Assembly: GCA_965224085.1 (NCBI GenBank)
Contig: CBDCYI010000009.1
Location: forward strand, 268,057 to 332,056
Direction: 5' to 3'
DNA length: 64,000 nucleotides
Origin: Candidatus Marinacidobacterales bacterium
GTDB lineage: Bacteria; Acidobacteriota; Vicinamibacteria; Marinacidobacterales; SMYC01
Of this stretch, positions 26,087 to 42,199 are shown in pieces (the first letter of the stretch is position 1; the number at the start of each line of letters is the position of its first letter). The position numbers and the translations under genes were made by a program. Below the pieces are notes generated by a model, which had not been told where the DNA came from, did not search any database, and was given only the letters and a program-made list of their open reading frames with translations.

Positions 26087-27711
26087 GCGAGAGCACGAAG
26101 CACGTCGAGGAGCTGACCGTCATGAGGTTTTTGGACGGCGAGCTCTCGCAGGAGCGCGAACAGAAAACGCGCGAGCATCTAATCTGCTGCGCCAGCTGTC
26201 GCTCGGCCCACGAAGCCTTGAAGGCGGAGACCGAGCTCTTGCGCGCCGCCGTGCTCGAGCGTGAAGAAGCGTTACCCGGCCATCTGAGGCCGCGTCACGC
26301 CGACGTGTCGTGGGTACTGGTGGCGATGATCGCGTTCGGCACGCTCGCCGTCTCGAGCCTTTGGACGCGCTATGTCCAGCCCATCATCGAAAGCATGGAG
26401 AGCATCGGGCTCGACGGGACGAGCGTCGCGACATCCCTTGTCGTTCAAGGAGTTCTCTGGGAAGGTTGGTCCGATATGTTGACGAGTTTCGTCGAGGGCG
26501 TGTCCCTCTTACTAGTGGCGGTCGCCGCGGGCTACGTGCTGCATTGGGGCTGGCGACGCTTTCTTTCGTCGGCGGTGACACTCTCGCTGCTGCTGGTCGC
26601 CCTCCCGGGCCTACTCGCAGCGCCTGCGAGTGTTTCGGCTGCGATCATCAAGCACGACGTGGAAACCTACACGCTGCGAGAAGGAGAGGTTATCGATAAC
26701 GATCTCATCGTCTTCGGCAAGAGAGTTGTGATCGAGGGGACCGTCGTTGGCGACCTCATTGTCGGCGCGGGCTCCGTCGAAGTTTTGGGCGAAGTGCAGG
26801 GGGACGTTCTCGGCTTTGCTGAGCGCATCGAGGTAAATGGCCGGGTTGGCGGCAATGTGCGCACCTGCGCTCGCACGCTCGTTGTCAACGGAGAGGTGGG
26901 GCGCAACATCACCGCGGGCGGCGAGGTCATTCGCTTAGGCCCGGGAGCGACACTCGGAGGAAGCTTCACTGCCGGGTCGAAAGAAGTGAGTTTACGCGCA
27001 CCGGTCACGCGCGATCTCGTAATGGCGGCCGAAACGTCCGAGATCCACGCGCGTATCGGCGGCTCGGCACTCGTCTTCGGCGAACGGCTCACGGTGGGCC
27101 CGACCGGGGCCATCGGCGGCGAGGCGAGATTTTTCGGCTCCCAAGAGCCGGAAGTCTCGGCTGATGCCGAGCTCACTTCGCCATTCGAGTTCGAAAGGGT
27201 CGACGACGACGACGAGTCGCTGACGTCCAGAGTTTGGGCCTTCTTCGGATACTGGGCCGCCGCGTTCATATTGGGTGCCGCGATCATGCTCGTGACCCCC
27301 GAAGCGACGGAAGGCGTCGTGACCCGCCACGTCCCCGACTATGGCAAGAGCTTCGTCGTCGGCGTCGTCGCGTCCGTCGTGCTCTTCGCGTTCACCTTCC
27401 TTGTGTCGGTCACCGTCGTCGGTCTTCCTCTCGGGTTGACGACGGCTTTCTTCCTGACTATCGGGCTGTACTTCGCGCAAGCGTATATCGGGGCCTATAT
27501 CGGCCGCGAGATTCTCGGTACACCAACCAGTGCCGGGCAAGCGCTCGGCCGCGTGGCACTCGGACTGTTTTTGATTTACATTGCCAAGTCGATTCCCGTC
27601 GTCAATGTTGTCGTTACGATCATTGTAGCTATCTGGGGTTTTGGGGCGCTGTCGCTTTACCTCATCGACCAACTCAAACACGCAAAGAAGGCCGACCCGG
27701 CGGAGGCTTGA
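26083..27711 (+). CDS. Anti-sigma factor (zinc-finger ZAS type) fused to a bactofilin-like beta-helix repeat region and a C-terminal polytopic membrane domain
   Basis: GTG start overlapping the sigma stop (GTGA). ZAS motif HLICCASCRSAH; TM helix; repeated V/G-rich units (VIEGTVVGDLIVGAGSVEVLGEVQGDVLGFAERIEVNGRVGGNV...) typical of polymer-forming cytoskeletal (bactofilin/CcmA) domains; 4-5 C-terminal TM helices. Confidence 0.6.
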   Translation: MSESTKHVEELTVMRFLDGELSQEREQKTREHLICCASCRSAHEALKAETELLRAAVLEREEALPGHLRPRHADVSWVLVAMIAFGTLAVSSLWTRYVQPIIESMESIGLDGTSVATSLVVQGVLWEGWSDMLTSFVEGVSLLLVAVAAGYVLHWGWRRFLSSAVTLSLLLVALPGLLAAPASVSAAIIKHDVETYTLREGEVIDNDLIVFGKRVVIEGTVVGDLIVGAGSVEVLGEVQGDVLGFAERIEVNGRVGGNVRTCARTLVVNGEVGRNITAGGEVIRLGPGATLGGSFTAGSKEVSLRAPVTRDLVMAAETSEIHARIGGSALVFGERLTVGPTGAIGGEARFFGSQEPEVSADAELTSPFEFERVDDDDESLTSRVWAFFGYWAAAFILGAAIMLVTPEATEGVVTRHVPDYGKSFVVGVVASVVLFAFTFLVSVTVVGLPLGLTTAFFLTIGLYFAQAYIGAYIGREILGTPTSAGQALGRVALGLFLIYIAKSIPVVNVVVTIIVAIWGFGALSLYLIDQLKHAKKADPAEA

Positions 27712-28175
27712 TGATTCGCACGATACAGGAATTCTTCCAACAACGCATCATCACCGAACAAACGCCGGTGGTGTCGCTCGAGCGCGCGCTACAACTAGCG
27801 ACAACCGCGCTCCTGATCGAGATTTCGCGTGCGGACTTCGAAGTCGCGGACGAGGAGCGTATCGCCATCGAAGAAGCTCTCACGCGTAGCTTTGGGCTCA
27901 CTGAGGATGAAACACGTGAGATCATCGCCCTTGCCGAGGAGGAAGTCGACGCCTCGGTCTCGCTCTACGAGTTCACCCGCCTCGTCGATGACAGCTTCAC
28001 CTACGAGCAGAAGAAACACATCATCGGGCTCTTGTGGCAAATCGCGTATAGCGACGATCGGCTCGAGGAGCACGAAGAACATCTGATCCGCAAGATCGCC
28101 AAGCTACTGCATATCGACCACAGCGACTTCATCGCCGAGAAGCTCAGGGCAAAGGAAGCCCAGGCGAGGACGTAA
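27711..28175 (+). CDS. TerB-like (tellurite-resistance TerB / DjlA N-terminal-like) domain protein
   Basis: ATG overlaps the anti-sigma stop (TGATG). 154-aa acidic helical protein with TerB-like pattern (EEALTRSFGL, KKHIIGLLWQIAYSDDRLEEHEEHLIRKIAKLLHI). Confidence 0.5.
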   Translation: MIRTIQEFFQQRIITEQTPVVSLERALQLATTALLIEISRADFEVADEERIAIEEALTRSFGLTEDETREIIALAEEEVDASVSLYEFTRLVDDSFTYEQKKHIIGLLWQIAYSDDRLEEHEEHLIRKIAKLLHIDHSDFIAEKLRAKEAQART

Positions 28176-29439: not shown

Positions 29440-29518
29440 GTGTGATCTTTAACACGAAACGTTCGCGCGATTGACGGTAGATGGGAAAAGCTTCGAAAAA
29501 CTTCCGCTAAATGAAGGC

Positions 29519-29542
29519 GGGGGGCGCCCGAAGGCGCCCCCC
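29519..29542. promoter_or_regulatory. Perfect GC hairpin (10-bp stem GGGGGGCGCC / GGCGCCCCCC, loop CGAA) in the leuB leader/divergent intergenic region
   Basis: Exact 10-bp inverted repeat seen in sequence, about 80 nt upstream of the leuB start (minus strand). On the minus strand it is followed by GCCUUCAUUUAGCGGAAGUUUUUCGAAGCUUUUCCC (U-rich patches), compatible with an attenuator or terminator of an unannotated transcript. Confidence 0.35.
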
Positions 29543-30160
29543 TATGATTCCAAAAGAACTGTTGCCAAGGATTATTTATGTGGAGTTGTTTAGGACGAGG
29601 TAAATGAAAAAGCAGGATAAAGTTGCGGGTTCGGTCGATGGATGGATAAGACCCGAGCTATGAGACACAGGCCTTTTGCGGACCCCTAGCGAACTGCTCG
29701 TCATGGAATCAACAAAGCGAGATCACTTTTTACTGTCCGATTAATACTAATGTCGTGTTTAGGTACAGCAATACTATAGGCGGCTTCCCTTTGGTGTCAA
29801 GACGAAAAAGAAGAGGCGGGACCAAACCACGCCCAATTGACTATCGATGAACGGTTTATCCGACAGGCGTCATTTCATACCGTAGATTTATGTAGGCGCT
29901 AGATCTTCCTTCCAATAATCAGAACCCGACTCAAACGGATGGCGCTTGATCTTCATTCGGCTTTTCGCGTAGTATTAGTGGCAGAGTTCGGGCTAATGCT
30001 AGTCCGGGCACCACAACCGGCACATCCACAACTGAAATCACGATTCTCATATCGCGATAGCTATCTATCGAGGGGATGAGGCGACTTTGTCGCTTCGTCG
30101 CGCTGCCGCCACCCAACATCGCAAGCGGCAGTGGTTCGAAATGTCGAAAGGAGCGGAATC

Positions 30161-30976
30161 GTGCAGGAGTTTCTAGTAGCGGTCGTGGCCTTTCCCACGA
30201 TCGTGTTCACGTTCGGTCTCGCGGTCGCCCTCCTCTACTGGCTCGTCGTGATCTTCGGCGCGCTCGACCTGGACTTTCTCGACAGCGCGCTCGGTCTCGA
30301 CAGCATGGATGCCGCTCTCGACGGAGCGCTCGAATCGATCGACGGGATGGCAGACGGGGCCGTCGAAGGTGTGGTGGAATCGATCGATGGTGCGGTCGAC
30401 GGCGCGGCGGAAGGCGCAGCGGACGCCGCTGATTCGGGAGATACGAGCGACGGGGCCCGGCAGGGCGCCCTTTCCGGGCTCTTGAACATGATGGGTGTTC
30501 GCGGCGTTCCCATCACGGTCGTTGCGAGCTTCGTGCTGCTCTGGGCATGGATTATCAGCATGGTCGGCTCCAAATTGCTGGGCGCGGCGGCGGCGACGTT
30601 CCTCGTCGGCGGCTTTCTCACAGGATCATCGGTCCTCGGTTCGTTGGTCCTTGCGGCGGTCACCGCTCGGCCTTTCCGGAAAATCTTCGTGACACCCTCT
30701 GCGCCCAGTCGCGTTTCGCTCGTCGGAAAAATCTGTATCGTGACTTCCGCGAAAGTCGACGGTGAGTTCGGCCGCGCCGAGATCGATGACGGCGCGACCG
30801 GTTTCGTCGCCGAAGTGCGATGCCCGCAGGACAACCAATTGACACGAGGCGCCAACGCGCTCGTGTATCGCTACGACCCGGCCGACGGCGTCTTTTTCAT
30901 TGGACCCGTCGACGATGCCTTGGCTACAGCATCGAATGTGGTCGATTCACAGTCTGGCTCGATAGGGGGAGGATAA
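30161..30976 (+). CDS. NfeD-family membrane protein (partner of SPFH/flotillin proteins)
   Basis: GTG start with RBS AAAGGAG 8 nt upstream. Two N-terminal TM helices, Asp/Ala/Gly-rich acidic segment (LDSMDAALDGALESIDGMADGAVEGVVESIDGAVDGAAEGAADAADSGD), two more TM helices, and a C-terminal NfeD OB-fold-like domain (GKICIVTSAKVDGEFGRAEIDDGATGFVAEVRCP...ALVYRYD). Stop TAA is immediately followed by the flotillin ATG. Confidence 0.65.
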   Translation: MQEFLVAVVAFPTIVFTFGLAVALLYWLVVIFGALDLDFLDSALGLDSMDAALDGALESIDGMADGAVEGVVESIDGAVDGAAEGAADAADSGDTSDGARQGALSGLLNMMGVRGVPITVVASFVLLWAWIISMVGSKLLGAAAATFLVGGFLTGSSVLGSLVLAAVTARPFRKIFVTPSAPSRVSLVGKICIVTSAKVDGEFGRAEIDDGATGFVAEVRCPQDNQLTRGANALVYRYDPADGVFFIGPVDDALATASNVVDSQSGSIGGG

Positions 30977-33025
30977 ATGTATTGGGTAATGGTCATTATC
31001 GCCGTCGGCGTGGGCGTGCTCATTCTGGGCATGGGCCTTTTGATGCTCATCGCCAAGTTCTATCGCAAGGTAGAACAAGGCAAAGCGCTCGTCGTCAACA
31101 AGATGAAGCAAGAGCCTGAAGTCACGTTTACCGGCGCCACGGTGCTCCCCGTAATCCACAAGGCCGAGGTCATGGATATCTCGGTGAAGACACTCGAGAT
31201 CGACCGGCGCGCGAAAGACGGACTGATCTGCCGTGACAACATTCGGGCCGACATCAAAGTCAACTTCTTCGTCCGCGTAAATAAACGCAAGGAAGATGTC
31301 ATCAGAGTCGCGCAGTCCATCGGCTGCGCCCGCGCCTCATCTCCCGAAACGCTCGACGAGCTCTTCAGCGCCAAGTTCTCCGAAGCGCTGAAGACGGTCG
31401 GCAAGCAGCTCGACTTCGTCGACCTCTACACGAAGCGCGACGAATTTCGCGACGCCATCATCCAGATCATCGGGCGCGACTTGAACGGCTACGCGCTCGA
31501 GGACGCGGCCATCGACTATCTCGAGCAGACCCCCCTCTCACATCTCGACCCGCAGAACATCCTCGACGCCCAAGGCATTCGCCGTATTACCGAGCTCACC
31601 GCGATCGAGCACATCCAAACGAACGAGTTCGAGAACAACGAGAAAAAAGCCATCACGAAACAGGACGTCGAGCGCGCAAAAGTCATCCTCGAGCTCGATC
31701 GCGAGCATGCGGACGCTGAGTCGAAGCAAAAGCGCGAGATCGAATCGGTACGCGCGCGCGAATTGGCCGCGCTCCAGCAAGTCCAGGCGGAAGAGCGGCT
31801 CAAGTCCGAAACGGCGCGCATCAAGACGGACGAAGAAGTCCAGGTCGCCGAGGAGAACAAGAATCGCCAGGTCCAGGTTGCTGCCAAGAACCGCGAGCGC
31901 ATTATTGGCGTCGAGACCGAGCGGGTCTTGAAAGACCGCCAGCTCGAACAGGTGGTCCGCGAACGTGAAGTCGAGCTCCAGCGCATCGACAAAGAGAAAG
32001 CGCTCGAAGTCGAGCGAAAAGAGATCCAGGACGTTATCCGCGAACGCGTCGCTGTCGAGCGCACCGTTGTCGAGGAACAGGAGCGCATCAAAGAGCTCCA
32101 GGTCGTCGAGGAGGCCAAGCGCACCAAGCAGGCCACCATCATTACGGCCGAGGCCGAAGCGGAAGAAGCCCTCGTCAAGGACATCAAAGCCGCCGAGGCC
32201 CAGGAGCAGGCTGCGAAGCACAAAGCCGTCGAGCGCATCACCCTCGCCGACGCCCAGCTCGAGGCCGCCGACCGCGACGCAAAAGCCAAGATCCGTCTCG
32301 CGGAAGGTACCCAGGCGGAAGCCGCAGCCGAAGGGCTCGCGGCCGCGAGGGTCAAAGAGGCCGACGCCGTCGCCTCCGAGAAGCACGGCCTCGCTGAAGT
32401 CCGGGTCCAGGAAGCGCAAGCGGGCGCTATCGAGCAAGTCGGCACCGCGGAAGCGACCGTGGTTCGCGAGAAAGGCGTCGCCGAGGCGCACACCATCCAG
32501 CAGAAGTTCGGCGCTGAGGCGAAAGGCCTCGCGGAAAAAGCCGAGGCGATGAAAGCGCTCGACAAAGACAGCCGCCAGCACGAGGAGTACCGCATCCGCC
32601 TCGAGAACGAGCGCCTGCTCGGTCTCGAAGCGATCCAAGCGCGCGAAGCCGTCGCCGCGCACAAAGCCCAGGTCCTCTCCAAAGCGCTCGAGTCGGCGGA
32701 TATCGACATCGTCGGCGGCGACGGTGTCTTTCTCGACCGCATGGTGAATTCCATCAGCATGGGCAAGGGCGTCGACGAGCTCGTCGATCAAAGCGACGTC
32801 ATCTCCGGGCTCGCCAAAGACTATTTCAATGGCGACAAGAACATCATCAAAGAGATCCGTCAGATCATGAAGGATTCCGGCATCGACGGAGGCATGCTCA
32901 AGGACATCACCATCGGGGCGCTTCTGACGAAGATCGCTACCGATATGGGAGGAGACGATCACGAAAAACTGAAGAAGCTTCAACGGCAAGCCAAAGCCTT
33001 GGGCATCGACGACGTTCGGCTATAA
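30977..33025 (+). CDS. Flotillin-family SPFH/band-7 protein (FloT/YuaG/YqiK-like), 682 aa
   Basis: N-terminal TM helix, SPFH domain (KALVVNKMKQEPEVTFTGATVLPVIHKAEVMDISVKTLEIDR...RDNIRADIKVNFFVRV), long E/A/K/R-rich coiled-coil flotillin region and a C-terminal tail. Confidence 0.85.
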   Translation: MYWVMVIIAVGVGVLILGMGLLMLIAKFYRKVEQGKALVVNKMKQEPEVTFTGATVLPVIHKAEVMDISVKTLEIDRRAKDGLICRDNIRADIKVNFFVRVNKRKEDVIRVAQSIGCARASSPETLDELFSAKFSEALKTVGKQLDFVDLYTKRDEFRDAIIQIIGRDLNGYALEDAAIDYLEQTPLSHLDPQNILDAQGIRRITELTAIEHIQTNEFENNEKKAITKQDVERAKVILELDREHADAESKQKREIESVRARELAALQQVQAEERLKSETARIKTDEEVQVAEENKNRQVQVAAKNRERIIGVETERVLKDRQLEQVVREREVELQRIDKEKALEVERKEIQDVIRERVAVERTVVEEQERIKELQVVEEAKRTKQATIITAEAEAEEALVKDIKAAEAQEQAAKHKAVERITLADAQLEAADRDAKAKIRLAEGTQAEAAAEGLAAARVKEADAVASEKHGLAEVRVQEAQAGAIEQVGTAEATVVREKGVAEAHTIQQKFGAEAKGLAEKAEAMKALDKDSRQHEEYRIRLENERLLGLEAIQAREAVAAHKAQVLSKALESADIDIVGGDGVFLDRMVNSISMGKGVDELVDQSDVISGLAKDYFNGDKNIIKEIRQIMKDSGIDGGMLKDITIGALLTKIATDMGGDDHEKLKKLQRQAKALGIDDVRL

Positions 33026-33043: not shown

Positions 33044-36000
33044 ATGAGCACGGACGTACAACAACAACCCGAGATCGAGCGCGGCACTTACGAGATCATC
33101 CGGGACCGCTTGCTCGGCCACGGCAAGACACTCGCCGAGAAAGCCGATGGACTCAACAGGAAACGCCTCGAGATCTTCGGAGGCACCGAGCTCGCGGTCC
33201 TGGGCAACGAGCGCATCCGGACCGAGAACAACTGCATCCCGCGCGACATCAAGGAGGTGGGTAACCACCTCCTGTTCGGCTATAACGTTTTCATCGGCCT
33301 CAAGCGCGAGACTCGCGTTGAGGACGTTTTCAGCCTTCACAGCTACGAGAAGACGGAGGACGGCTTCGTTTTTCGCAAAGTCGAAAAAAACTCTCCCGAC
33401 TACTTTCTCTCGGACGTGAAATTTCTAGAGGAGTTCCACGAGCTCTATCACTATTACAAGAACACCAAGCTCCTCCAGCTGAGACGGGTCAGCGAGAAGC
33501 TTCTCGCGGTATTCCAAATTGGCGAGAAGATCGAGGACGTGCGCGTGTTCCGCTGGGCCATCTCCACCGACGGCGCGGTTACCTATATCGACAACCGCGG
33601 CGAGCGCGACCACGTTTTCCCTCGGACCCATGACTTCGAATGGACGCTCACAGCGCGTGAAGAGCACGTGCAGGGCCGTCACCCGCACGTCAACATTCTC
33701 GACGAAGTTTTCGTCGAGACCGTCGGCGGCGATCTCACGATCAAGGTCGAGAACAACACCGAAGACGGCCAGGGTATCTATCGCGAGCCGGTGCTCGACG
33801 CCGACCAATCTTTGGACGACGCGGAAGTCCACTACGCAGAAGTGGGCACGCTCATTCTTCTGAAGATGCTCCCCTACCGCGAAACGGATTACCGATATCT
33901 CGTCTTCAACACGCGCACCAATCACGTCGATCGCATCGACGCCATCGGCCAATCCTGCGTACAGCTTCCCGAGGACCACGGCGTCATCTTTCCGGGCGGC
34001 TACTACCTGAAGAGCGGCCACACAAAGTCCTTCGAGCGCGATTTCCGCGGGATGGAGTTCCTGAGACGTCTGCGCTCCCCGAACGGCGAAGACGTCCTTT
34101 ACGCGTTTCACGAGCGTGAATCTGGGCGCACGATCCTACTTCCGTACAACATGATCCGGAAGGAGGTCGACAACCCGCTCAATTGCCACGGCTTCAGCCT
34201 CTATCCCGACGGCACGCTCGTCGTGTTCCGCGCTGGCGACGACGAGCCCAAACGCGTCCATGGGATGCAAGTCTGGCGCACGCCCTTCTTGAGCGAAGAG
34301 GCGGTGCAGTCGCGGCCGCCCACCGGCTCGTTCCTCGAGAAAGTGGGCAATGCCGAGCTCGTGCGCGGCGTCTCCGACTGCTTGAGCATTCGCCGCATGG
34401 TCGACGAGCAGGAGCCGACGCGGCAGAAATACGAGGACCTCGTCGCGGCGGCGGCACGCGTCATCGACAGCTATTACTGGCTCGACAACCCCGAGATTGG
34501 AGACCTGCGCGAGCCGCTCCGGAACGTTCACGAGTCCGCCGAGAGCATCATCGACGAGTTCGAAAAAGTCGAAGCGCTAAGGGCGCAAGCGAGAAGGACT
34601 CTCGACGAGGCCGGCGAGAAGGTCCAGGAGATCTTCCGAACCATTTATCCCGATTCCTGGACCTCGATCGACCAATATGTCGCCTGTCTCGCGAGCTTAC
34701 GCTCGGCGCGCGGGCACCTCATTACGCTCCGCGAAACACGCTATGTCGATCTCGCCCGAATCGACACGGTCGAAGCGGAGATTGTCGAGCGCTTCGATAA
34801 TGTCAGCGAGCGCGCCGTCGAGTTTCTTCTGCAAGACGAAGCACTACTTCCCTATCAAGAACGCGCGGGCGCGCTCGAGGACGGTGTTCCCGGCCTCTCG
34901 AAAGTTACCGAGGCGAACGCCCATCAAGACGCCCTCCAAGAGTTCGGCGACAGTCTCGATCTCTTGACCGATGTGGTCAGCTCGCTCGAGATCGACGACG
35001 CCACGGTCCGCACGCAGATTCTCGGGAACATCTCGGAGATCTTGGGAAGCCTCAACCGCGTCCGTGCGCTCATCACCAACCGGCGCAAAGAGCTTCTCGG
35101 CAAAGAAGGCATCGCTGAGTTCGGCGTGCAATTCCAGCTTTTGAGCCAAAGCGTAACGAGCGCTCTATCTCTCTCCGACACGCCCGAGAAATGTGACGAA
35201 CAGCTCTCGAAGCTCATGCTCCAGCTCGAAGATCTGGAAACCCGTTTCTCCGAGTACGAAGAGTTCACGGACGAGCTCACGACCAAGCGCGAGGAAATCT
35301 ACGAGGCGTTCAGCTCGAAGAAGCAGTCCCTTGTCGACCGGCGCCAGCGCCGCGCGCAAAACTTGATGCAGGCCGCCGAGCGTATTCTAGGAAGTGTGAC
35401 GCGGCGCGCGGAGACGTTCGAGACCGCCGACGACCTGAACGCCTATTTCGCTGCTGACGCGATGGTCGCCAAGCTCCGGAGCACGTCAAACAATTTGCGA
35501 GAGCTCGGCGACTCTGTCCATGCCGACGAGATCGACGGCCGACTCAAAGCCGCCAAAGAAGACGCCGCCCGCGGACTTCGCGACCGCCAGGAGATCTACG
35601 AGGACGGCGCCAACGTCATCAAGCTCGGCAGGCACCGCTTCAGCGTCAACACTCAGCCTCTCGAGCTCACCATGGTGCCTCGCGACGACGCCATGGCCTT
35701 TCATCTCACCGGCACCGGCTTCTACGAGCAGGTCGACGATGAGACCTTCGGAAAAACGCAGGATTTCTGGTCGCAAGAGCTCGTTTCCGAAACGCGTTCA
35801 GTCTATCGGGGCGAATATCTGGCCTATTGCGTGCTCGAAGACGCAGAGCTCGGAGATTCCGAGTTGTCGCTCAAGAAGCTCCTCCAAGCCACCCGCGGCG
35901 AAGGGGCGCTTCTGGGCATCATACGCGACTATGCGGCTCTGAGATATGACGAGGGGTATGAGCGCGGCCTCCACGACGCCGACGCGACGCTGATCTTGCA

Positions 36001-38416
36001 AAAGATCCTGGGCATGCACGAGACCGCGGATCTGCTTCGCTTCACCCCGAACGCGCGCGCACTGGCTACCGTTTTCTGGGCGCTCTACGACGACCGGAAA
36101 AAGCGCGCGGCCTGGGAAAGCCAAGCTCGCAGCCTCGTCCGCCTCCGCACCCAATTCGAGCACACGGAGGCGATGACGGAGCTCGGTGGCGAGCTCAACG
36201 AAGCGATCGCGACCCATCTCGCCGAGATCGGGATCGATGTGCCGACGCAGGCGTCCCGTCTAGCCGGCGCCTACCTGCTCGAAGAGATCGCGCGCGAGCC
36301 GCAGAAATTCGTCCTGAGCGCGGATGCAAACGAGCTCAAGCGCGCTTTCGAAAAGCACTTGCGTGAGTCCGGCGGCGACCGCGAGCTCGAACAGGACTTG
36401 CGCGCGCTCAGCGACACGCCCGTGCGCGCTTACGAGCTCACGGAGGCGTGGATGGCCGCCTTTCTCTCGAGCTCGGAAAACGGCGATCGCTTGGCTCGCT
36501 CTTCCCTCGAGGCCGTCGTCGCGCTTCTTTTCGAAGACAAAGTGAGCCGAGACACCTCGAGCGCGCAGTCCAAAGTCACGGTCGAGGGGCTCCTTGGCCA
36601 GCACCCCCGCATGCCGCAAGGCCGTATGGAGCTCCATCTAGACGAATTCCTCTCGCGGCTCGGCCATTTTCGACATCGACAAGTCAGAGGCTTCAGAGAG
36701 TTCCAAAAAGCCCGCCACGACGTGCTCGAGCACGAGCGTGAGAATCTACGTCTCGACGAGTACAAGCCCAAGGTCATGTCGTCTTTCGTGCGCAACCGGC
36801 TCATCAACGACGTGTATCTACCGCTCATCGGCGACAACCTCGCGAAACAGATGGGGGCTCTCGGCGACGCCAAGCGCACCGACCTCATGGGGATGCTTCT
36901 CCTCATCTCACCTCCGGGCTACGGCAAGACGACTTTGATGGAGTACCTCGCCAACCGGCTCGGCCTCGTCTTCATGAAGATTAACGGCCCCGCCCTCGGC
37001 CACTCGGTCACATCGCTAGATCCAGGCGAAGCACCGAACGCCACCGCGCGCCAGGAGGTCAACAAGCTCAACCTCGCTTTCGAGATGGGCAACAACGTCC
37101 TTCTCTACATCGACGACATCCAGCACACCCATCCCGAATTTCTCCAGAAATTCATCTCGCTCTGCGACGCACAGCGAAAAGTGGAAGGTGTTTGGAAAGG
37201 TCGGACGCGCACTTACGATCTGCGCGGCAAGAAGTTCGTCGTGTGCATGGCGGGAAACCCTTACACGGAATCCGGCGAAAAATTCCAAATCCCAGACATG
37301 CTCGCGAACCGCGCCGATACCTACAATCTAGGCGACATCCTCGAAGGCAAAGACGACTTCTTCGCGCTTTCCTACATCGAGAACGCGCTCACGTCGAACG
37401 CCGTCCTCGCGCCCCTCACGACGCGCGAGCAAAGCGATATCGAGTTGCTCGTGCGCATGGCGAATGGCGAGGCGATTCAAGCGGATCAGTTGAAGCACGG
37501 CTACTCCGCCGTCGAGATCGGCGAGATCCAGTCCGTTTTGAAGAAGCTTCTCAAAGTCCAGCAGGTGCTCCTCGCGATCAACCAGCAATATATTCGCTCG
37601 GCGTCGCAAGAAGACGCCTATCGCACCGAGCCGCCTTTCAAGCTCCAGGGGAGCTACCGCAACATGAACAAGCTCGCTGAGAAGATCGTGGCCGCGATGA
37701 ACGACGACGAGCTCGAAAGCCTCATCGACGACCACTATCTCGGCGAATCGCAGACTTTGACGACGGGCGCCGAAGAGAACCTTCTCAAGCTTGCCGAGAT
37801 GCGCAGCCGGATGAGCGAGAGCCAGAAGGCACGCTGGGAGGAGATCAAAAGCGGTTTCGTTCGAGTGCAACGCATGGGGGGCGGCGACGACGACCCCGCG
37901 ACGAGGCTCACGGGACAGCTCAGCCTGGTCTCCGAGCATCTCGAAGACATCGGTCAGAGCATCGAGCGCGCCGCCTCGAGTGCTGCTTCTCGCCCGCAAG
38001 CGATCTCGGCGGATCCCGACCTCAGCGCGTTCACCGCGCGGGACGTCGAGGTCAAGCTCGACCTCGCTCCCTATATCGACAAGCTCCACGAGCTTCTCGA
38101 GGCCTTCCAGAACGGGCAAACACAACTCGCCGCCGCACCGCAGATCAAGGGCGAGGCCCAGGCGCCGCCAGCGGATTACGAGCTCATCTCACGCGAGTCC
38201 TACCTCATCGAAGGCACCCTCATCCCGTTGATGCGCTTCATGGCGCATCGCTTCCGGGGCTATCGCGGGGTGGACGACCCGAAAATCAAAGCGCTCATAC
38301 AGAGACTCGAATATGTCGACGATCTCCAGGAGCTCGTCAACGCGCTCGAGAAAATCAACGTCTCCGCCCTCTCGAACATAACCGACGAAGAGGAGACGGA
38401 CGAGGCCTCGACATGA
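33044..38416 (+). CDS. Giant (1790 aa) protein of unrecognised N-terminal architecture with a C-terminal MoxR/AAA_5-like ATPase domain
   Basis: Uninterrupted ORF with RBS GGAAGG upstream. Single P-loop LLISPPGYGKTTLMEYLANRLGL and Walker B NVLLYIDDIQHTHPEF, with sensor region FVVCMAGNPYTESGEKFQIPDMLANRADTY (AAA_5/dynein-related fold), at about residues 1285-1430. About 1280 aa upstream and 350 aa downstream show no motif I can assign. Confidence 0.7.
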   Translation: MSTDVQQQPEIERGTYEIIRDRLLGHGKTLAEKADGLNRKRLEIFGGTELAVLGNERIRTENNCIPRDIKEVGNHLLFGYNVFIGLKRETRVEDVFSLHSYEKTEDGFVFRKVEKNSPDYFLSDVKFLEEFHELYHYYKNTKLLQLRRVSEKLLAVFQIGEKIEDVRVFRWAISTDGAVTYIDNRGERDHVFPRTHDFEWTLTAREEHVQGRHPHVNILDEVFVETVGGDLTIKVENNTEDGQGIYREPVLDADQSLDDAEVHYAEVGTLILLKMLPYRETDYRYLVFNTRTNHVDRIDAIGQSCVQLPEDHGVIFPGGYYLKSGHTKSFERDFRGMEFLRRLRSPNGEDVLYAFHERESGRTILLPYNMIRKEVDNPLNCHGFSLYPDGTLVVFRAGDDEPKRVHGMQVWRTPFLSEEAVQSRPPTGSFLEKVGNAELVRGVSDCLSIRRMVDEQEPTRQKYEDLVAAAARVIDSYYWLDNPEIGDLREPLRNVHESAESIIDEFEKVEALRAQARRTLDEAGEKVQEIFRTIYPDSWTSIDQYVACLASLRSARGHLITLRETRYVDLARIDTVEAEIVERFDNVSERAVEFLLQDEALLPYQERAGALEDGVPGLSKVTEANAHQDALQEFGDSLDLLTDVVSSLEIDDATVRTQILGNISEILGSLNRVRALITNRRKELLGKEGIAEFGVQFQLLSQSVTSALSLSDTPEKCDEQLSKLMLQLEDLETRFSEYEEFTDELTTKREEIYEAFSSKKQSLVDRRQRRAQNLMQAAERILGSVTRRAETFETADDLNAYFAADAMVAKLRSTSNNLRELGDSVHADEIDGRLKAAKEDAARGLRDRQEIYEDGANVIKLGRHRFSVNTQPLELTMVPRDDAMAFHLTGTGFYEQVDDETFGKTQDFWSQELVSETRSVYRGEYLAYCVLEDAELGDSELSLKKLLQATRGEGALLGIIRDYAALRYDEGYERGLHDADATLILQKILGMHETADLLRFTPNARALATVFWALYDDRKKRAAWESQARSLVRLRTQFEHTEAMTELGGELNEAIATHLAEIGIDVPTQASRLAGAYLLEEIAREPQKFVLSADANELKRAFEKHLRESGGDRELEQDLRALSDTPVRAYELTEAWMAAFLSSSENGDRLARSSLEAVVALLFEDKVSRDTSSAQSKVTVEGLLGQHPRMPQGRMELHLDEFLSRLGHFRHRQVRGFREFQKARHDVLEHERENLRLDEYKPKVMSSFVRNRLINDVYLPLIGDNLAKQMGALGDAKRTDLMGMLLLISPPGYGKTTLMEYLANRLGLVFMKINGPALGHSVTSLDPGEAPNATARQEVNKLNLAFEMGNNVLLYIDDIQHTHPEFLQKFISLCDAQRKVEGVWKGRTRTYDLRGKKFVVCMAGNPYTESGEKFQIPDMLANRADTYNLGDILEGKDDFFALSYIENALTSNAVLAPLTTREQSDIELLVRMANGEAIQADQLKHGYSAVEIGEIQSVLKKLLKVQQVLLAINQQYIRSASQEDAYRTEPPFKLQGSYRNMNKLAEKIVAAMNDDELESLIDDHYLGESQTLTTGAEENLLKLAEMRSRMSESQKARWEEIKSGFVRVQRMGGGDDDPATRLTGQLSLVSEHLEDIGQSIERAASSAASRPQAISADPDLSAFTARDVEVKLDLAPYIDKLHELLEAFQNGQTQLAAAPQIKGEAQAPPADYELISRESYLIEGTLIPLMRFMAHRFRGYRGVDDPKIKALIQRLEYVDDLQELVNALEKINVSALSNITDEEETDEAST

Positions 38417-38480
38417 ACGCGCTAGACCTGCGCGCCATGTTACGATTCCCAAAACCGGTTCTCACCGAAGGGAGTTCGTG

Positions 38481-39236
38481 ATGGGGTTATTCGAGCGGAT
38501 CCGAGCGGTCTGGTACGCCATAATCAACAAATCCGTCACTGAGATGGAGGACGCGCACGTGATCGCACTCGCGGAGCACAAGCTCCAGCAGGCCACCGAG
38601 CGACTGAAAGAGGCGCGCCAAGGCTTGATCAGCTATCAAGCACTCGTTTTGAAAGTCGAAGGGCAAGTCGGAAGCGAAAAGTCGCGCATCGCGAGCGTCA
38701 CCGGGCAGATCAAGAACCACTTGAAGGCCAATCAGGAAGAGATGGCCGGCCAGCTCGCTCTCGAGCTCGCTCGGGTCAAAGGCGAGCTCGAAAGCAACAC
38801 CGAGCAGCTCGCACAACATCGCGAGAGCTACGAGAACAACCTTCTGAAGATGAAAGCGGCGCTCAAGGACATCGAGACGGCCAAGCAGGACCTCGACAAG
38901 AAGAAAGCCGCGCTTCAGATGGAGAAGGCTTTGGCCGAAGTCTCCGAGACCGCCGGCGCGCTCAACACCCAGTTCGATGTTTCTTCCGACATCGGCTCGA
39001 TCCTGAGCCGCGTCGACGACCAGATCAATAAAGCCAAAGCGCGCTCGAAGGTCGCCTCCGATCTGAGCGATCAAGGCATCGATCAGCTCAAAGCGAAGCA
39101 ATCGGCAGACAAGGCCGAAGCTCAGGAGCTTCTCGCGCAGTTCAAGATCGAGCAGGGGCTCGCCGAGCCGTCTTCAGAAGCAAGTGAGAAAACTGTAGGA
39201 CCGCAGAGAGAAGCCACGCCAGAGTCCGGTGAATAG
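38481..39236 (+). CDS. pspA: PspA/IM30/Vipp1-family protein (bacterial ESCRT-III superfamily)
   Basis: Canonical N-terminus MGLFERIRAVW...MEDA (compare PspA MGIFSRFADIV..., Vipp1 MGLFDRLGRVV...); about 250-aa all-helical coiled-coil protein with E/K/Q heptads; RBS GGGAG upstream. Confidence 0.8.
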   Translation: MGLFERIRAVWYAIINKSVTEMEDAHVIALAEHKLQQATERLKEARQGLISYQALVLKVEGQVGSEKSRIASVTGQIKNHLKANQEEMAGQLALELARVKGELESNTEQLAQHRESYENNLLKMKAALKDIETAKQDLDKKKAALQMEKALAEVSETAGALNTQFDVSSDIGSILSRVDDQINKAKARSKVASDLSDQGIDQLKAKQSADKAEAQELLAQFKIEQGLAEPSSEASEKTVGPQREATPESGE

Positions 39237-40950
39237 CCCTTTGGGAAGCGGCGCGCCCACTTGGGCGCGGGAGCTTGCCTCGAGCTATGTCAGTGGGGCT
39301 GCAAGCGTCTTCCTTCTCTATGGAAACGTCCACGACCTCGTTCCGGTCACGGACTCGGACGAGTTCATCTCGCTCGACGACTATCTCGCCACGCAGCTCT
39401 TCGGCCAACGGGACATCGTTCTCGCCTACGATCGCGGTAGCGGCATCCGCTTTCTCGCTCCCGGGGATGCCGACCGTCGGGCGTCCATGCAAGAGGACTT
39501 TTACAAGACGCTCAAAGCCGTGGACTCGGTAAGCGGCACAAGCTTCGCGAGCTCGAGGCCTAAAGATCCCAAAGTCGTGTTCGAGCTCCTCGACCGCTAC
39601 ATCCTCCACAAGCTCGTCGAAACGCCTGCAGACGGCAATCGCAAGAGCCTCGCGATCGTGATCTGCTATGTCGAGACCATCACGCCGGCCGTCGATGGCT
39701 CGTGGCTCACGGGCGAGCTCGGCGCCAACCTCATCAAAGTGCTCAATTGGGCCAACGACCCTGGGATTCGAAGCGCTGATGTGACGCTTTGTCTCGTCAC
39801 GGAGAACCTCGGCGACGTAAACCGCCGCCTCGTCGAGAACCCATTCATCTCTAAAGTAGACGTCGAGCTCCCGGACGAGACGACGCGTGAGCGCTACGCG
39901 AGGCATTTGTTGAAAGACGCAGCAATGGCGAAGACGGTGGCCCGTGAAGGCAACGGGCTGACGCTCGTCGGTCTCGCACAGGCGGTCAGTGGCTCCGTCG
40001 AGCTCGCCAATTTGCAAGCGGCCAAAAAGGAGCTCATCGAGAAACAGTGCTTCGGCCTCGTCGAGTTCGTTGCTCCGAGCTACGACCTCGACATGGTTGT
40101 CGCGCCCGAGGCAGTCAAAGACCGCCTCGAGCAAGACGTGTCGCTATTCAAGAAGGGACGGCTCGAAGCGCTCCCGATGGGCTATCTCCTCTGCGGGGTC
40201 ATCGGCACCGGCAAGACATTTACGGCAACATGCTTTGCAGGAAGCCTCGGCATCCCAACGATCGTCTTCAAGAACCTCCGCAGCAAGTGGGTCGGAAGCT
40301 CCGAAGGCAATCTCCAAAAAGTGCTCTCGGTGATCAAAGCCCTCGGCCCCGTCGTCGTCGTCGTCGATGAAGCCGATGCCGCGCTGGGAAGCCGCGGGTC
40401 GAGCGGGGACAGCGGCACGTCGAGCCGCATGTTCGCGATGATCTCGTCACTCATGAGCGACACCGGTTACCGGGGGCGCATCCTGTGGATGCTCCTCACT
40501 TGCCGTCCTGACATGTTGCCCGTCGATTTGAAGCGGCAAGGTCGCTGCGAGGTCCACATCCCGCTCTTCCCGCCCGAGACTGAGAAGGCCCGCCACCAAA
40601 TGTTTCTCGCGATGGCGCGCACAAACGGCGTCGCGATCGCTCCCAGCGACGTTCCCACCCTGCCGGAAGAGCTCTCGGGCGCGGACATCGAAAGTCTGCT
40701 CGTGCAATGCGTCCGCCGCGCCGCGATCGCGGGCGCTGCTTCGCTCTCCGCCGCGCATATCCGTGACACGCTTGCCCACTTTCGATCACCGGATTATGGT
40801 CTCGAGAAGGAGCTGCAGCAGCTCGTCGCCATCCGCGAGAGCACCGACCCCAACTTCATCCCAAAGCGACTGCGAACGCGTTACGGAGCGCCGGACAAGG
40901 CGATAGCCCTCGAGCACCGCATTCAGGAGATCGCAGCACTTCTCCAATGA
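39229..40950 (+). CDS. Classic-clade AAA+ ATPase (Vps4/CDC48/FtsH-like AAA domain) with a 280-aa N-terminal domain
   Basis: GTG start overlapping the pspA stop by 8 nt. Walker A GVIGTGKTF, SKWVGSSEGNL (compare Vps4/spastin SKWxGESEK), Walker B VVVVDEADA, second region of homology LLTCRPDMLPVDLKRQGRCEVHIPLFPP (Arg fingers). Confidence 0.8.
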   Translation: MNSPLGSGAPTWARELASSYVSGAASVFLLYGNVHDLVPVTDSDEFISLDDYLATQLFGQRDIVLAYDRGSGIRFLAPGDADRRASMQEDFYKTLKAVDSVSGTSFASSRPKDPKVVFELLDRYILHKLVETPADGNRKSLAIVICYVETITPAVDGSWLTGELGANLIKVLNWANDPGIRSADVTLCLVTENLGDVNRRLVENPFISKVDVELPDETTRERYARHLLKDAAMAKTVAREGNGLTLVGLAQAVSGSVELANLQAAKKELIEKQCFGLVEFVAPSYDLDMVVAPEAVKDRLEQDVSLFKKGRLEALPMGYLLCGVIGTGKTFTATCFAGSLGIPTIVFKNLRSKWVGSSEGNLQKVLSVIKALGPVVVVVDEADAALGSRGSSGDSGTSSRMFAMISSLMSDTGYRGRILWMLLTCRPDMLPVDLKRQGRCEVHIPLFPPETEKARHQMFLAMARTNGVAIAPSDVPTLPEELSGADIESLLVQCVRRAAIAGAASLSAAHIRDTLAHFRSPDYGLEKELQQLVAIRESTDPNFIPKRLRTRYGAPDKAIALEHRIQEIAALLQ

Positions 40951-41456
40951 AAGACGGCCTCGTTCGCAGACAAGTCAAGCGCATCGGCCTCGGCGTCTTC
41001 CACGCGCGTCTGTTTCTTCACCGCCTTCAGGCCGACACGCGTTACGAGCTCGGCGGCGAGTGCATCCGCTGCGGCAAATGTTGCTTGGAGCCAGGAATTC
41101 AAGTCGGCCGCATCGCTTGGTACCTCCCCGGCTGCCGGCGGGTCTTTCTCTGGTGGCACCGAGTTGTCAACGGCTTCACGCTCAAGGAGGCCCGGCGGGA
41201 AGACCGCGTGTTCATTTTTGAGTGCAGCCATTTCGACTGGGCGTCGCGGAGCTGCGACAGCTACCACTCCCGGCCCGGAATGTGCCGCGACTACCCGCGC
41301 CTGTTCCTCGAACAGGCCAACCCCGAGTTTTTCGACGAGTGCGGTTTCAAAGCGCTCGCTCGAGGCCGGGACAGCCTCATCCAAATTCTCGAGAAAGAAT
41401 CTCTTACGCCGCAGCAGCTGGCCAAGCTGAAAAAAGGCCTTTATCTCGAAGATTGA
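40947..41456 (+). CDS. YkgJ-family cysteine-cluster protein (UPF0153; putative Zn/Fe-binding)
   Basis: ATG overlaps the AAA+ stop (ATGA). Motifs CIRCGKCC and CSHFDWASRSCDSYHSRPGMCRDYP match the YkgJ CxxCxxCC...C..C..RP..CR.YP pattern. Confidence 0.6.
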   Translation: MKDGLVRRQVKRIGLGVFHARLFLHRLQADTRYELGGECIRCGKCCLEPGIQVGRIAWYLPGCRRVFLWWHRVVNGFTLKEARREDRVFIFECSHFDWASRSCDSYHSRPGMCRDYPRLFLEQANPEFFDECGFKALARGRDSLIQILEKESLTPQQLAKLKKGLYLED

Positions 41457-41566
41457 GATGAAAGGCTTGCTGCCGCGATTCGACTCGGTTACATTAGAGG
41501 TTGAGCCCTCTCCACACACAAGAAAGCCAAAGCTCTGCCGGCCTTGCTTAGGGGTGTCGGAACCGC

Positions 41567-42199
41567 ATGCGTAGACTGAAGATCCGGAGTTATCTCGCCA
41601 CCGGTCTACTAGTCTGGATTCCGCTCGCCGTGACCCTCTTCGTCCTCCGGGTGCTGATAAATTTGATGGATCAGTCCCTCCTGCTGATCCCGCCGTCGTT
41701 GCGTCCTGAGAATCTATTGGGGTTCAGCATCCCGGGCCTGGGCGTCATTCTCACGTTCACGCTCGTCACCGTGACCGGTTTTTTGGCCGCGAACTTTCTC
41801 GGCAAACGGCTATTGGCGACCTCGGAAGGGCTTCTCGCACGTATCCCGCTTGTGAGCTGGGTCTATTCCGGCGTAAAGAAGGTGGCGGAAACGCTCTTGT
41901 CGCCGACGAGCGAGTCGTTTCGCAAAGTGCTCCTGATGGAGTACCCTCGCAAAGGCATCTGGAGCGTCTGCTTTCAAACGTCGAGCGAGCTTGGCGAGAT
42001 ACAGATTCGTACGGGGAAGGAAGTGCTCTGCGTGTTCGTCCCCACGACCCCGAACCCCACCTCTGGTTTCGTCATTTTCGTTCCCCGCGATGAGGTCATC
42101 GAGCTCGATATGACGGTCGACCAAGCATTGAGGATGATCATCTCGCTCGGCGTCGTGGTTCCCGAGTGGCGCCGCCGCGAGCTCATGCCGGTAGGTTGA
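41567..42199 (+). CDS. DUF502-family membrane protein
   Basis: Two N-terminal TM helices (LLVWIPLAVTLFVLRVL; GLGVILTFTLVTVTGFLAANFLG) and a conserved DUF502 core (RIPLVSWVYSGVKKV...VLLMEYPRKGIWSVCFQT). Confidence 0.6.
   Translation: MRRLKIRSYLATGLLVWIPLAVTLFVLRVLINLMDQSLLLIPPSLRPENLLGFSIPGLGVILTFTLVTVTGFLAANFLGKRLLATSEGLLARIPLVSWVYSGVKKVAETLLSPTSESFRKVLLMEYPRKGIWSVCFQTSSELGEIQIRTGKEVLCVFVPTTPNPTSGFVIFVPRDEVIELDMTVDQALRMIISLGVVVPEWRRRELMPVG

Follow-up and report, generated by a model that had tools for sequence, protein, structure and literature searches.

The window, that is, the whole 64,000-nt stretch of contig CBDCYI010000009.1 from a Candidatus Marinacidobacterales bacterium that was analyzed, contains a three-gene cassette in which genes for an NfeD-like membrane protein and a flotillin-like protein precede the gene for a very large AAA+ ATPase, here called the giant protein. 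The features of this locus, in window positions, are the following:

30131 to 30976, + strand: NfeD/YqiJ-YuaF-like membrane protein, 281 aa, first cassette gene
30977 to 33025, + strand: flotillin-like SPFH protein, 682 aa, second cassette gene
33044 to 38416, + strand: giant soluble AAA+ ATPase of the DUF3686/BacE family, 1790 aa, third cassette gene
33191 to 34279, + strand: beta-rich domain inside DUF3686, residues 50 to 412, from the structural model
34331 to 35596, + strand: acidic spectrin-like rod of three-helix bundles, residues 430 to 851, including DUF7902
35597 to 36793, + strand: small beta domain (residues ∼852 to 920), helical domain (921 to 1165), and a beta element with a long helix leading into the ATPase (1166 to 1250)
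36794 to 37468, + strand: MoxR/dynein/midasin-type AAA+ module with lid, residues 1251 to 1475
36908 to 36934, + strand: Walker A, SPPGYGKTT, residues 1289 to 1297, the only P-loop in the giant protein
37100 to 37126, + strand: Walker B, LLYIDDIQH, residues 1353 to 1361, with Asp-Asp and not Asp-Glu
Other AAA motifs of the module: sensor-1 Asn1405; PDMLANRAD with Arg1423; pre-sensor-1 beta hairpin, residues 1379 to 1392
37469 to 38413, + strand: conserved post-lid helical domain (residues 1476 to 1625), variable low-confidence linker (1626 to 1715), and C-terminal helices with an acidic tail at the end
38478 to 39236, + strand: PspA/IM30 protein of the ESCRT-III superfamily, 252 aa (Pfam, 44.1 bits; cutoff, 33.9)
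39229 to 40950, + strand: classical-clade (Cdc48-like) AAA ATPase, 573 aa, 8-nt overlap with pspA
40947 to 42199, + strand: CxxCxxCC zinc/iron-chelating protein (169 aa; 4-nt overlap with the 573-aa AAA gene) and DUF502 membrane protein (210 aa)

The flotillin-like gene abuts the end of the NfeD-like gene (positions 30977 and 30976, respectively) and is followed by an 18-nt gap before the giant gene; upstream, a 690-nt spacer separates the cassette from a divergent leuB gene. By hydropathy, the NfeD-like protein comprises hydrophobic segments at residues ∼8 to 56 and 120 to 179, a linker rich in Asp, Gly, and Ala, and a C-terminal domain that is soluble; it has no Pfam match. In the flotillin-like protein, a putative, divergent SPFH domain is followed by a long coiled coil rich in Glu and Ala, and the C-terminal part carries the conserved motif IVGGDG.F.DR. 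Its single N-terminal transmembrane helix, within residues 1 to 30, precedes basic residues, so the bulk of the protein is predicted to face the cytoplasm. The flotillin reported upstream of the giant gene by a preliminary description of this DNA stands on the evidence of relatives: 3 of 15 orthologs (51 to 64% identical) match PF01145 Band_7, as does the neighbor of P0008, and the relatives are named “flotillin family protein” or “YqiK” in the sources. The window protein itself yielded no Pfam Band_7 or Flot match even at an E value of 10, and no match was obtained among PDB sequences, including with a 15-sequence profile.

The three-gene order was examined across 80 genome loci from five phyla. 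In 74 of the 80 loci, the gene just before the giant gene encodes a flotillin-like ortholog (47 to 70% identical), and in ∼68, tblastn placed an NfeD-like ortholog right ahead of the flotillin gene; the median gaps are 36 nt (NfeD-flotillin) and 78 nt (flotillin-giant). The cassette occurs in Acidobacteriota, Myxococcota, Actinomycetota, Gammaproteobacteria, and Planctomycetota.

The giant ORF, which starts with ATG and spans 1790 codons at exactly the coordinates given earlier, is a genuine single gene. Fusion of two genes through a sequencing error was rejected because the homologs, more than 100 in addition to 77 genome orthologs, are all full length with the identical domain order. The protein lacks hydrophobic segments (hydropathy over 19 residues, at most 0.96). 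Its ∼1,280 N-terminal residues, previously considered unassignable and devoid of any nameable motif, include two Pfam domains: DUF3686 (PF12458) at residues 30 to 478 (E value, 8.2e−212; 704 bits; profile positions 2 to 448 of 448) and, centrally within the helical rod, DUF7902 (PF25472) at residues 599 to 683 (E value, 2e−25). When the segments 478 to 689, 690 to 1280, and 1430 to 1790 were searched in isolation against Pfam, DUF7902 was the sole match, and the region of residues ∼852 to 1250 matched no known family; among PDB sequences, matches to the giant protein were limited to ∼40 residues surrounding the P-loop. The beta-rich N-terminal region and the long acidic helical stretches anticipated in the preliminary description are both present. 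In the structural model, residues 50 to 412 form ∼28 strands in seven four-stranded groups, which probably make up a seven-bladed propeller. The rod of ∼420 residues, one per chain, folds like spectrin repeats, and within it residues 481 to 851 are 19.9% Asp+Glu, with a net charge of −27. The ATPase domain is not C terminal, as had been suggested; after it come ∼315 residues that are conserved or helical.

The lone P-loop and the Walker B motif were located as described. The module matches the AAA_5 profile and has a MoxR-like fold in the model; its nearest structural relatives are the MoxR remodelers CbbQ and NorQ, along with dynein and midasin, at a sequence identity of just 14 to 16%, and classical-clade proteins rank beneath the MoxR, dynein, and Clp groups. 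In the model, the hairpin at residues 1379 to 1392 follows helix 3 and precedes strand 4, whereas the segment between strand 2 and helix 2 (residues 1315 to 1332) is modeled as a loop and not as a hairpin. The motifs SPPGYGKTT, DDIQH, MAGNPY, and PDMLANRAD are kept in 75 to 77 of the 77 genome orthologs, and conservation is highest in the AAA core, where 70% of the columns are conserved at 90% or more. With no variation in Walker A, sensor-1, or the Arg motif, the ATPase looks catalytically competent and strongly constrained. Walker B deviates from the canonical hhhhDE, carrying Asp-Asp in 75 of the 77 orthologs; on the basis of this motif, ATP turnover is probably slow, and the module might operate as a switch rather than a motor.

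Several features set the giant protein apart from known AAA+ systems. The MoxR proteins (CbbQ, NorQ, and RavA; Pfam AAA_5) are ∼250 to 500 aa long, compared with 1790 aa and one AAA module here; they differ further in their Walker B motif and in their helix-2 insert, which does not show as a hairpin in the model of the giant protein. MoxR ATPases normally act with a VWA/MIDAS partner, but no such domain was detected in the giant protein, in seven neighboring window genes, or in 126 ORFs that flank the cassette at other loci. HflK/C-FtsH, in which an SPFH cage encloses an AAA+ machine, offers a precedent for SPFH proteins and AAA+ ATPases that function as pairs. The ATPase of that pair, FtsH, is a protease of the classical AAA clade and is anchored in the membrane; in contrast, the giant protein is soluble, belongs to the MoxR clade, and has no protease domain, and its SPFH partner is of the flotillin/YqiK type, not the HflK/C type.

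By sequence, the giant protein belongs to a catalogued, widespread, and already published, albeit biochemically uncharacterized, bacterial DUF3686-AAA (BacE-like) family. The earlier statement that no known family matches it thus did not hold: Pfam, NCBI naming, and two papers cover the protein. At least 594 full-length orthologs (∼1600 to 1900 aa; 46 to 62% identity) are present in GTDB species genomes from five phyla, the full-length homologs overall ranging from 1590 to 2036 aa, and ∼50% identity is kept over 1700 residues across phyla. No alternative N-terminal architectures were seen among the homologs, the shorter matches appearing to be contig fragments. The database names of the family are “ATPase involved in DNA repair” (Pfam, DUF3686) and “DNA repair ATPase” (NCBI). 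A literature search on DUF3686 retrieved no papers, and no experimental study of the giant protein was found in the literature searched.

The ortholog in Pseudomonas aeruginosa is bacE (PA14_16190/PA3728) of bacABCDEF, the “biofilm-associated cluster” (PMC2587700, PMC10948618). In published accounts, PA3728 is listed as an “ATPase” and PA14_16160 is called a short NfeD. Like the giant gene, bacE directly follows genes whose products are a flotillin of 76 kDa (BacD/PaFlo3) and an NfeD-like protein of 23 kDa (BacC). The gene order at Pseudomonas loci is DUF2170-PspA-NfeD-flotillin-giant, and the published primers for the bacD-bacE junction contain coding sequence for EGDFFN, a flotillin motif, and for NNCIA, a motif of the giant protein; the assignment of the window protein as a BacE ortholog rests on synteny, protein sizes, and these primer-encoded peptides. 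bacD and bacE are cotranscribed, and when bacA is mutated, the expression of both rises 9- to 13-fold (PMC10948618). Deletion of the flotillin partner in P. aeruginosa lowered biofilm formation by ∼20%, with no stress phenotype. The window differs from bacABCDEF in having no DUF2170/BacA gene, no PLD-like gene, and no upstream match to the sigma-54 promoter proposed for bacA: none was found in positions 29440 to 30130, and matches across the window were at chance level, as were the results of a scan for sigma-70 promoters and terminators.

Ravi et al. (2024) described computationally an architecture identical to that of the giant protein (beta-propeller, coiled coil, and AAA ATPase), encoded in the same order as the cassette (YqiJ-YuaF, Band-7/flotillin, ATPase), with abbreviated flotillin-YqiJ-ATPase operons being widespread, and drew the same contextual inference on the flotillin/ATPase link. 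Their study, which is purely computational, gives no ATPase clade, structure, or mechanism for the family. They also reported that PspA co-occurs with a protein of two AAA+ domains, the N-terminal copy of which is inactive. The window joins a flotillin cassette of the type that they described with this separately described pair.

The PspA gene downstream of the giant gene, correctly recognized in the preliminary description, is a lineage-specific add-on to the cassette. A PspA of the window type is conserved downstream only in relatives that are at least 72% identical and is absent from that position in all 80 other genomes. A different, YjfJ-type PspA lies upstream of the cassette in 16 of the 80 genomes, all Gammaproteobacteria, accompanied by DUF2170; this dyad is confined to gammaproteobacterial loci and is missing upstream of the window cassette. 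Compared with the PspA of the bac operon, that of the window belongs to another subfamily, is encoded downstream, and comes with a Cdc48-like AAA partner. In ∼64 of the 80 genomes, and likewise in P0120 and P0010, no PspA adjoins the cassette. The 573-aa AAA protein, whose active module spans residues ∼305 to 520 after 300 N-terminal residues without a Pfam match, is the probable partner of the window PspA. The CxxCxxCC and DUF502 genes, which are in the same order in L081, possibly form the operon tail. No downstream partner is conserved across phyla, with PLD-like, rhomboid, and TelA genes occurring sporadically. The optional neighbors of the cassette are membrane related, namely, PspA, added twice at different positions, PLD-like, rhomboid, and DUF502 proteins.

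On balance, there appears to be a slightly better than even chance that the giant protein is a soluble cytoplasmic MoxR-type AAA+ ATPase serving as the dedicated energy-consuming partner of the upstream flotillin-like and NfeD/YqiJ proteins, most likely, as part of an envelope-stress module, by using ATP to remodel the membrane assembly of flotillin and NfeD. What was determined here in favor of this reading is how the giant protein is built from domains, which AAA+ clade its ATPase belongs to, which of the three proteins are soluble and which are membrane proteins, and the invariant three-gene synteny; the cotranscription and coregulation of the Pseudomonas ortholog are taken from the literature. 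The membrane-related optional neighbors and the phage induction of PA3728 to PA3732 also favor it. Counting against it are the missing VWA/MIDAS partner, the Asp-Asp Walker B, the mild effect of deleting the P. aeruginosa flotillin, and the failure of Pfam to detect the flotillin-like protein of the window. Contact between the flotillin-like and giant proteins is possible because the bulk of the former is predicted to be cytoplasmic and the latter has no hydrophobic segment. The single AAA+ modules would assemble into a ring, in the manner of MoxR ATPases, with a spectrin-like rod extending from each subunit and tipped by the propeller-like head. The head would bind the cytoplasmic side of the flotillin/NfeD assembly, and in the model this rod-plus-head architecture suits a reach-and-grip adaptor. 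ATP turnover could then drive the assembly, opening, or dismantling of the flotillin/NfeD assembly, or else the extraction of clients from the membrane patch that it encloses. The three proteins would form part of an envelope-stress module that PspA joined in some lineages. We infer the physical interaction of the three proteins, their oligomeric state, the substrate, and the direction of remodeling.

The giant protein had been proposed to be a mechanochemical partner of either flotillin or PspA. Comparative genomics across the 80 genomes and five phyla best supports the flotillin side, the mechanism itself being a prediction, and the PspA side fares worse because the window-type PspA is never found downstream in those genomes and has an AAA partner of its own. 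It is unlikely that the giant protein disassembles or positions PspA polymers as a bacterial Vps4 analog, with flotillin merely recruiting it, even though pspA adjoins the giant gene here and in close relatives, a YjfJ-type PspA is an operon member in bacABCDEF and in 16 of the 80 genomes, and the joining of PspA to the cassette at two different positions suggests a functional link. An AAA+ gene next to a gene of the ESCRT-III superfamily does resemble Vps4-ESCRT-III, but this analogy suits the classical-clade 573-aa protein, whose gene overlaps pspA, far better than it does the MoxR-clade giant protein, and Pfam detected no MIT domain in the giant protein or its neighbors. The frequent lack of an adjacent PspA also argues against this role. 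Distinctly unlikely, too, is a mainly structural role, in which the giant protein would be a spectrin-like submembrane scaffold and its ATPase only a nucleotide-dependent assembly switch. The length of the spectrin-like repeats and an Asp-Asp Walker B consistent with slow hydrolysis would fit a scaffold; conversely, conservation peaks in the AAA core together with sensor-1 and the Arg motif, each chain has a single rod, and no motif for self-association was recognized.

A slim probability attaches to a membrane anti-phage or anti-toxin module, in which flotillin and NfeD would sense envelope damage, the giant protein would relay the signal, and the effectors would be PLD or rhomboid proteins. 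The patchy distribution within genera, for which horizontal transfer has been inferred (PMC13086221), the ∼50% identity across phyla, the PLD-like and rhomboid genes downstream in some genomes, and the induction of PA3728 to PA3732 by phage infection (PMC12041424) all point in this direction. However, Psp-type genes respond to any envelope stress, PADLOC models match the giant, NfeD-like, and flotillin-like proteins only at a trivial P-loop level, the genes flanking the cassette are ordinary housekeeping genes, three related genomes preserve the gene context on the leuB side, and the neighbors are not enriched in defense genes. Finally, a DNA repair ATPase is highly improbable. Apart from the database names, it can appeal only to a weak, P-loop-level similarity to RuvB (NCBIfam, 18 to 20 bits against cutoffs of 282 to 299, over residues 1277 to 1320), and nothing in the present evidence supports the label, which is a mislabel.

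Remodeling of the flotillin/NfeD assembly is the preferred reading of the giant protein. A more specific form of it, in which a MoxR-type motor ring with spectrin-like arms and propeller heads is a dedicated ATP-driven assembly/disassembly machine of a flotillin/NfeD cage, is offered tentatively and is rather doubtful. If true, it would be the first energy-consuming, nonproteolytic remodeler known for any flotillin and would represent a VWA-independent MoxR branch built like a one-module dynein or midasin.

These findings correct the annotation of the window, in that the giant protein is neither a DNA repair enzyme nor unassignable. The structural assignment made here, comprising a MoxR-type motor, a spectrin-like rod, and an Asp-Asp Walker B, provides a basis for bacE mutants and constructs in P. 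aeruginosa. Because at least 594 species carry it together with one flotillin subfamily and it retains ∼50% identity over 1700 residues across phyla, the giant ATPase is an obvious candidate flotillin regulator, one that bears on the question of what bacterial flotillins do and how flotillin assemblies are controlled.

The giant gene opens with ATG 18 nt beyond the stop codon of the gene before it, and its 1790 codons span exactly 33044-38416 (+ strand); the preliminary description had these coordinates right, as well as the motifs, a single P-loop, SPPGYGKTT (residues 1289-1297), and LLYIDDIQH (residues 1353-1361). The best 120 of thousands of protein-search matches are nearly all full length (~1690-1940 aa; a few are partial), are 56-92% identical to the giant protein, and contain the same three Pfam domains, ruling out an erroneous fusion of two genes. 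A chance reading frame is ruled out by full-length homologues in protein, genome, and cluster searches. Scanning one genome per GTDB species revealed at least 594 loci with the giant gene. With residues 1-850 as the query against 1.84 billion cluster representatives, matches were found only at the N terminus of 1590-2036-aa proteins or in obvious fragments; among these representatives, only ~390 clusters at 50% identity reached E 1e-30. Compared with the window protein, the orthologues from 80 fetched genome loci (L001-L080) are 46-62% identical over ~1700 residues among Acidobacteriota, Actinomycetota, Myxococcota, Gammaproteobacteria, and Planctomycetota, reflecting extreme constraint or, alternatively, recent spread by horizontal transfer.

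The N-terminal 1280 residues, originally considered unassignable, include two Pfam domains, and two AlphaFold2 models (residues 1-880 and 850-1790, each on an 80-sequence alignment; mean pLDDT, 85.5 and 84.0, respectively) delineate the architecture of the protein. In residue numbers:

15-45: helix (AlphaFold2)
30-478: DUF3686 (PF12458, "ATPase involved in DNA repair"), matched end to end (Pfam, E 8e-212)
50-412: beta-rich domain of ~28 strands in seven groups of four (AlphaFold2)
430-851: long helical region, the spectrin-like rod (AlphaFold2)
599-683: DUF7902 (PF25472; Pfam)
852-1250: small beta domain and helical domain (AlphaFold2)
1251-1475: alpha/beta ATPase core with lid (AlphaFold2)
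around 1276-1410: AAA, AAA_22, AAA_5, and RuvB_N models (Pfam)
1353-1361 (window 37100-37126): Walker B LLYIDDIQH, with Asp in place of the usual catalytic Glu
1476-1625: conserved helical (post-lid) domain (AlphaFold2)
after 1625: variable low-confidence linker, then terminal helices with an acidic tail at the end (AlphaFold2)

No solved structure matched the protein outside the ATPase module. Conservation peaks in the AAA core (at least 90% in 70% of the columns), and the beta domain, the post-lid domain, and the second half of the rod are substantially conserved as well. Hydropathy analysis detected no hydrophobic segment, so the protein is cytoplasmic. The earlier assignment of the ATPase to the MoxR/AAA_5 group is supported, but the module is not C-terminal, being followed by ~315 residues. 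The module retains intact P-loop, sensor-1, and Arg motifs. In its Walker B motif, Asp-Asp replaces Asp-Glu, with DDIQH found in 75/77 genome orthologues; the motif resembles the Walker B of DnaA, and it may be a sign of a slow switch. MoxR ATPases normally depend on a VWA/MIDAS partner; Pfam scans detected none in the giant protein, its window neighbours, or the flanking ORFs of other loci.

Other genes of the window are listed here in window coordinates:

628-4179: UvrD-type helicase fused to a PD-(D/E)XK nuclease, 1183 aa
upstream of the cassette, divergent: leuB
30131-30976, + strand: NfeD/YqiJ-like protein, 281 aa; it has several hydrophobic stretches, a linker rich in Asp, Gly, and Ala, and a C-terminal part that is soluble
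30977-33025, + strand: flotillin-like protein, 682 aa; a single transmembrane helix at the N terminus is followed by basic residues, and then come a globular region, a long coiled coil rich in Glu and Ala, and a C-terminal motif that is conserved
38478-39236: bona fide PspA/IM30, downstream of the giant gene
39229-40950: classical-clade AAA ATPase, 573 aa, overlapping pspA by 8 nt
40947-42199: CxxCxxCC (YkgJ-like) cysteine-cluster protein, in a 4-nt overlap with the AAA gene, then a DUF502 membrane protein
52607-55570: response-regulator receiver fused to a PPDK_N ATP-binding domain, 987 aa
55620-57905: FAD_binding_3 and Oxidored_FMN fusion, 761 aa

The low-complexity linker of the NfeD-like protein (residues ~50-110) sits between hydrophobic segments. 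Neither this protein nor the flotillin-like protein matched Pfam even at E = 10, and no PDB sequence match was found for the latter, even with a 15-sequence profile. Because Band_7/SPFH is matched by 3 of 15 orthologues of the 682-aa protein (best E 1.4e-7) and its close relatives are called "flotillin family protein" or "YqiK" by the source databases, the designation "flotillin-like" is reasonable by transitivity. The subfamily represents a divergent branch of SPFH proteins, liable to be missed by routine annotation, the window protein escaping both Pfam Band_7 and Flot. The best PDB relatives of the 573-aa AAA protein are VAT, Afg2, and Cdc48 D2 (E 7e-30), and its N-terminal 300 aa have no Pfam match. 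The CxxCxxCC and DUF502 genes may be part of the same operon. Their order is repeated in L081, a close relative; in L081 and a second close relative, L082, a DUF8173-TerB gene pair lies beyond leuB, with a gene for an ECF-type sigma factor ahead of the pair in L081. The window counterparts at 25401-28175 (e.g., the ORF at 25756-27711) have no Pfam match at E 1e-5.

The window proteins were compared by tblastn with the 80 loci, including 10-kb flanks, which span the same five phyla and classes. The flotillin-like gene (47-70% identity) adjoins the giant gene on the 5' side wherever upstream DNA exists, and an NfeD-like gene lies just 5' of it in most of the loci, with median gaps of 78 nt between the flotillin and giant genes (n = 74) and 36 nt between the NfeD and flotillin genes (n = 68). 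Window-type PspA and the 573-aa AAA were found downstream of the giant gene in 0/80 loci by tblastn, and Pfam annotation of 73 downstream ORFs yielded only sporadic families (PLD-like, 6; rhomboid, 6; TelA, 2), the first two at six loci each. Among 53 ORFs upstream of NfeD, Pfam identified PspA_IM30 in 13 and DUF2170 in 8, the DUF2170 gene being present at 8 loci with the gammaproteobacterial upstream PspA. By local phmmer search, a YjfJ-type PspA gene directly precedes NfeD at 16 of the 80 loci, all gammaproteobacterial (L040, L044-L046, L048, L050, L053, L055, L059, L060, L063, L064, L067, L077, L078, and L080). The order NfeD-flotillin-giant-PspA-AAA beside leuB is kept in window relatives at 92% and 72% identity; PspA is absent in a Thermoanaerobaculia relative (57%) and a Myxococcota relative (61%). 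Because NfeD and flotillin are constant, whereas PspA and other neighbours vary, the three-gene cassette is the invariant unit. PspA joined it at least twice, on opposite sides and with different companions. The initial proposal that the giant protein is a partner of flotillin or of PspA is therefore partly supported: cassette synteny favors flotillin more than PspA, an optional add-on. The nearest relatives of the cassette are 92-94% identical, and those at 73-77% identity are named Vicinamibacteria (P0274, P0279, P0114, and P0297).

Abbreviated flotillin-YqiJ-ATPase operons are widespread, some operons also carry a PLD hydrolase, and "Betapropeller+Coiled-coil+AAA-ATPase" is tabulated after flotillin (Ravi et al., 2024). 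In Acidobacteriota, PspA has been noted with band 7/FloT and NfeD (Popp et al., 2022). Ravi et al. (2024) also described a pairing of PspA with a double-AAA+ protein in which the N-terminal AAA+ domain is inactive, a description that the 573-aa gene fits. The overlapping pspA-AAA pair (38478-40950) is conserved in close relatives and, with its VAT/Cdc48-D2-like AAA, resembles ESCRT-III/Vps4. The presence of such a pair contrasts with the statement in a 2025 review that a Vps4-like ATPase is apparently absent in bacteria.

The "biofilm-associated cluster" of Pseudomonas aeruginosa is a six-gene operon, bacABCDEF (PA14_16140-16200 = PA3732-PA3727; PMC2587700, PMC10948618), in which BacA is CesT-like, BacB is PspA, the membrane protein PA3730 has a mass of 23 kDa and PA3729 one of 76 kDa, and PA3728 is listed as "ATPase." PA14_16160 has been called a short NfeD and PA14_16180 the SPFH protein PaFlo3 (PMC13086221). 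Two peptides are encoded by the published RT-PCR primers for the bacD/bacE junction: EGDFFN, the exact C-terminal motif of the fetched Pseudomonas flotillin orthologues, and PKNNCI(A), resembling the ENNCIARD motif near residue 70 of the giant family. On the basis of gene order, protein sizes, and these primer-encoded peptides, BacE is equated with the giant family. bacE and bacF share a transcript with the other bac genes, and in a bacA mutant, BacE and BacF are up 9-fold and 6-fold, respectively (PMC10948618). Phage infection induces PA3728-PA3732 (PMC12041424). Deletion of paFlo3 lowers biofilm by only ~20% and causes no stress phenotype; no study of BacE biochemistry was found in the literature.

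The giant protein is soluble and combines a MoxR-type ATPase, a spectrin-like rod, and a beta-rich head, and its gene is obligately linked to those of an NfeD-like membrane protein and a flotillin-like protein that faces the cytoplasm. On balance, we lean slightly toward the giant protein serving the flotillin/NfeD assembly as its dedicated, ATP-dependent partner; each specific direction of remodelling is considerably less secure. By analogy with MoxR proteins, the ATPase would form a ring whose rods and heads might dock on the assembly, and nucleotide turnover could assemble, open, or dismantle it, or extract clients from the enclosed membrane patch, perhaps during envelope stress and with PspA possibly recruited in some lineages. 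The lack of a VWA/MIDAS partner and the possible slow switch count against such a dedicated partner.

A Vps4-like PspA disassemblase is an improbable alternative, given that PspA is missing from most cassettes and that the window PspA has its own classical AAA partner. Slightly lower still is the probability that the cassette is a membrane-based defence module: PADLOC returned no defence matches beyond P-loop similarity, and the context is housekeeping, conserved in related genomes. We hold it equally doubtful that the giant protein serves structurally, as a spectrin-like scaffold with a nucleotide switch. A DNA repair ATPase is the reading that comes from database labels: NCBI gives relatives the name "DNA repair ATPase" in some cases and "AAA family ATPase" in others, and JGI uses "MoxR-like ATPase." However, nothing was found to back the "DNA repair" label, and a literature search returned no paper using the term DUF3686; the RuvB similarity is confined to the P-loop region, the protein lacks a DNA-binding domain, and its invariant neighbours encode membrane proteins, making this function very unlikely.

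The original observation is partly confirmed and its interpretation partly supported. The family is already known, being computationally described and catalogued in databases, with a putative functional role, and its association with flotillin and PspA is not new either. New here are the ATPase clade, the spectrin-like rod, and the invariant Asp-Asp Walker B; the quantified three-gene cassette as a conserved core in which PspA is optional; and the link of the giant family to P. aeruginosa bacE. The giant protein is a striking machine under strong constraint.
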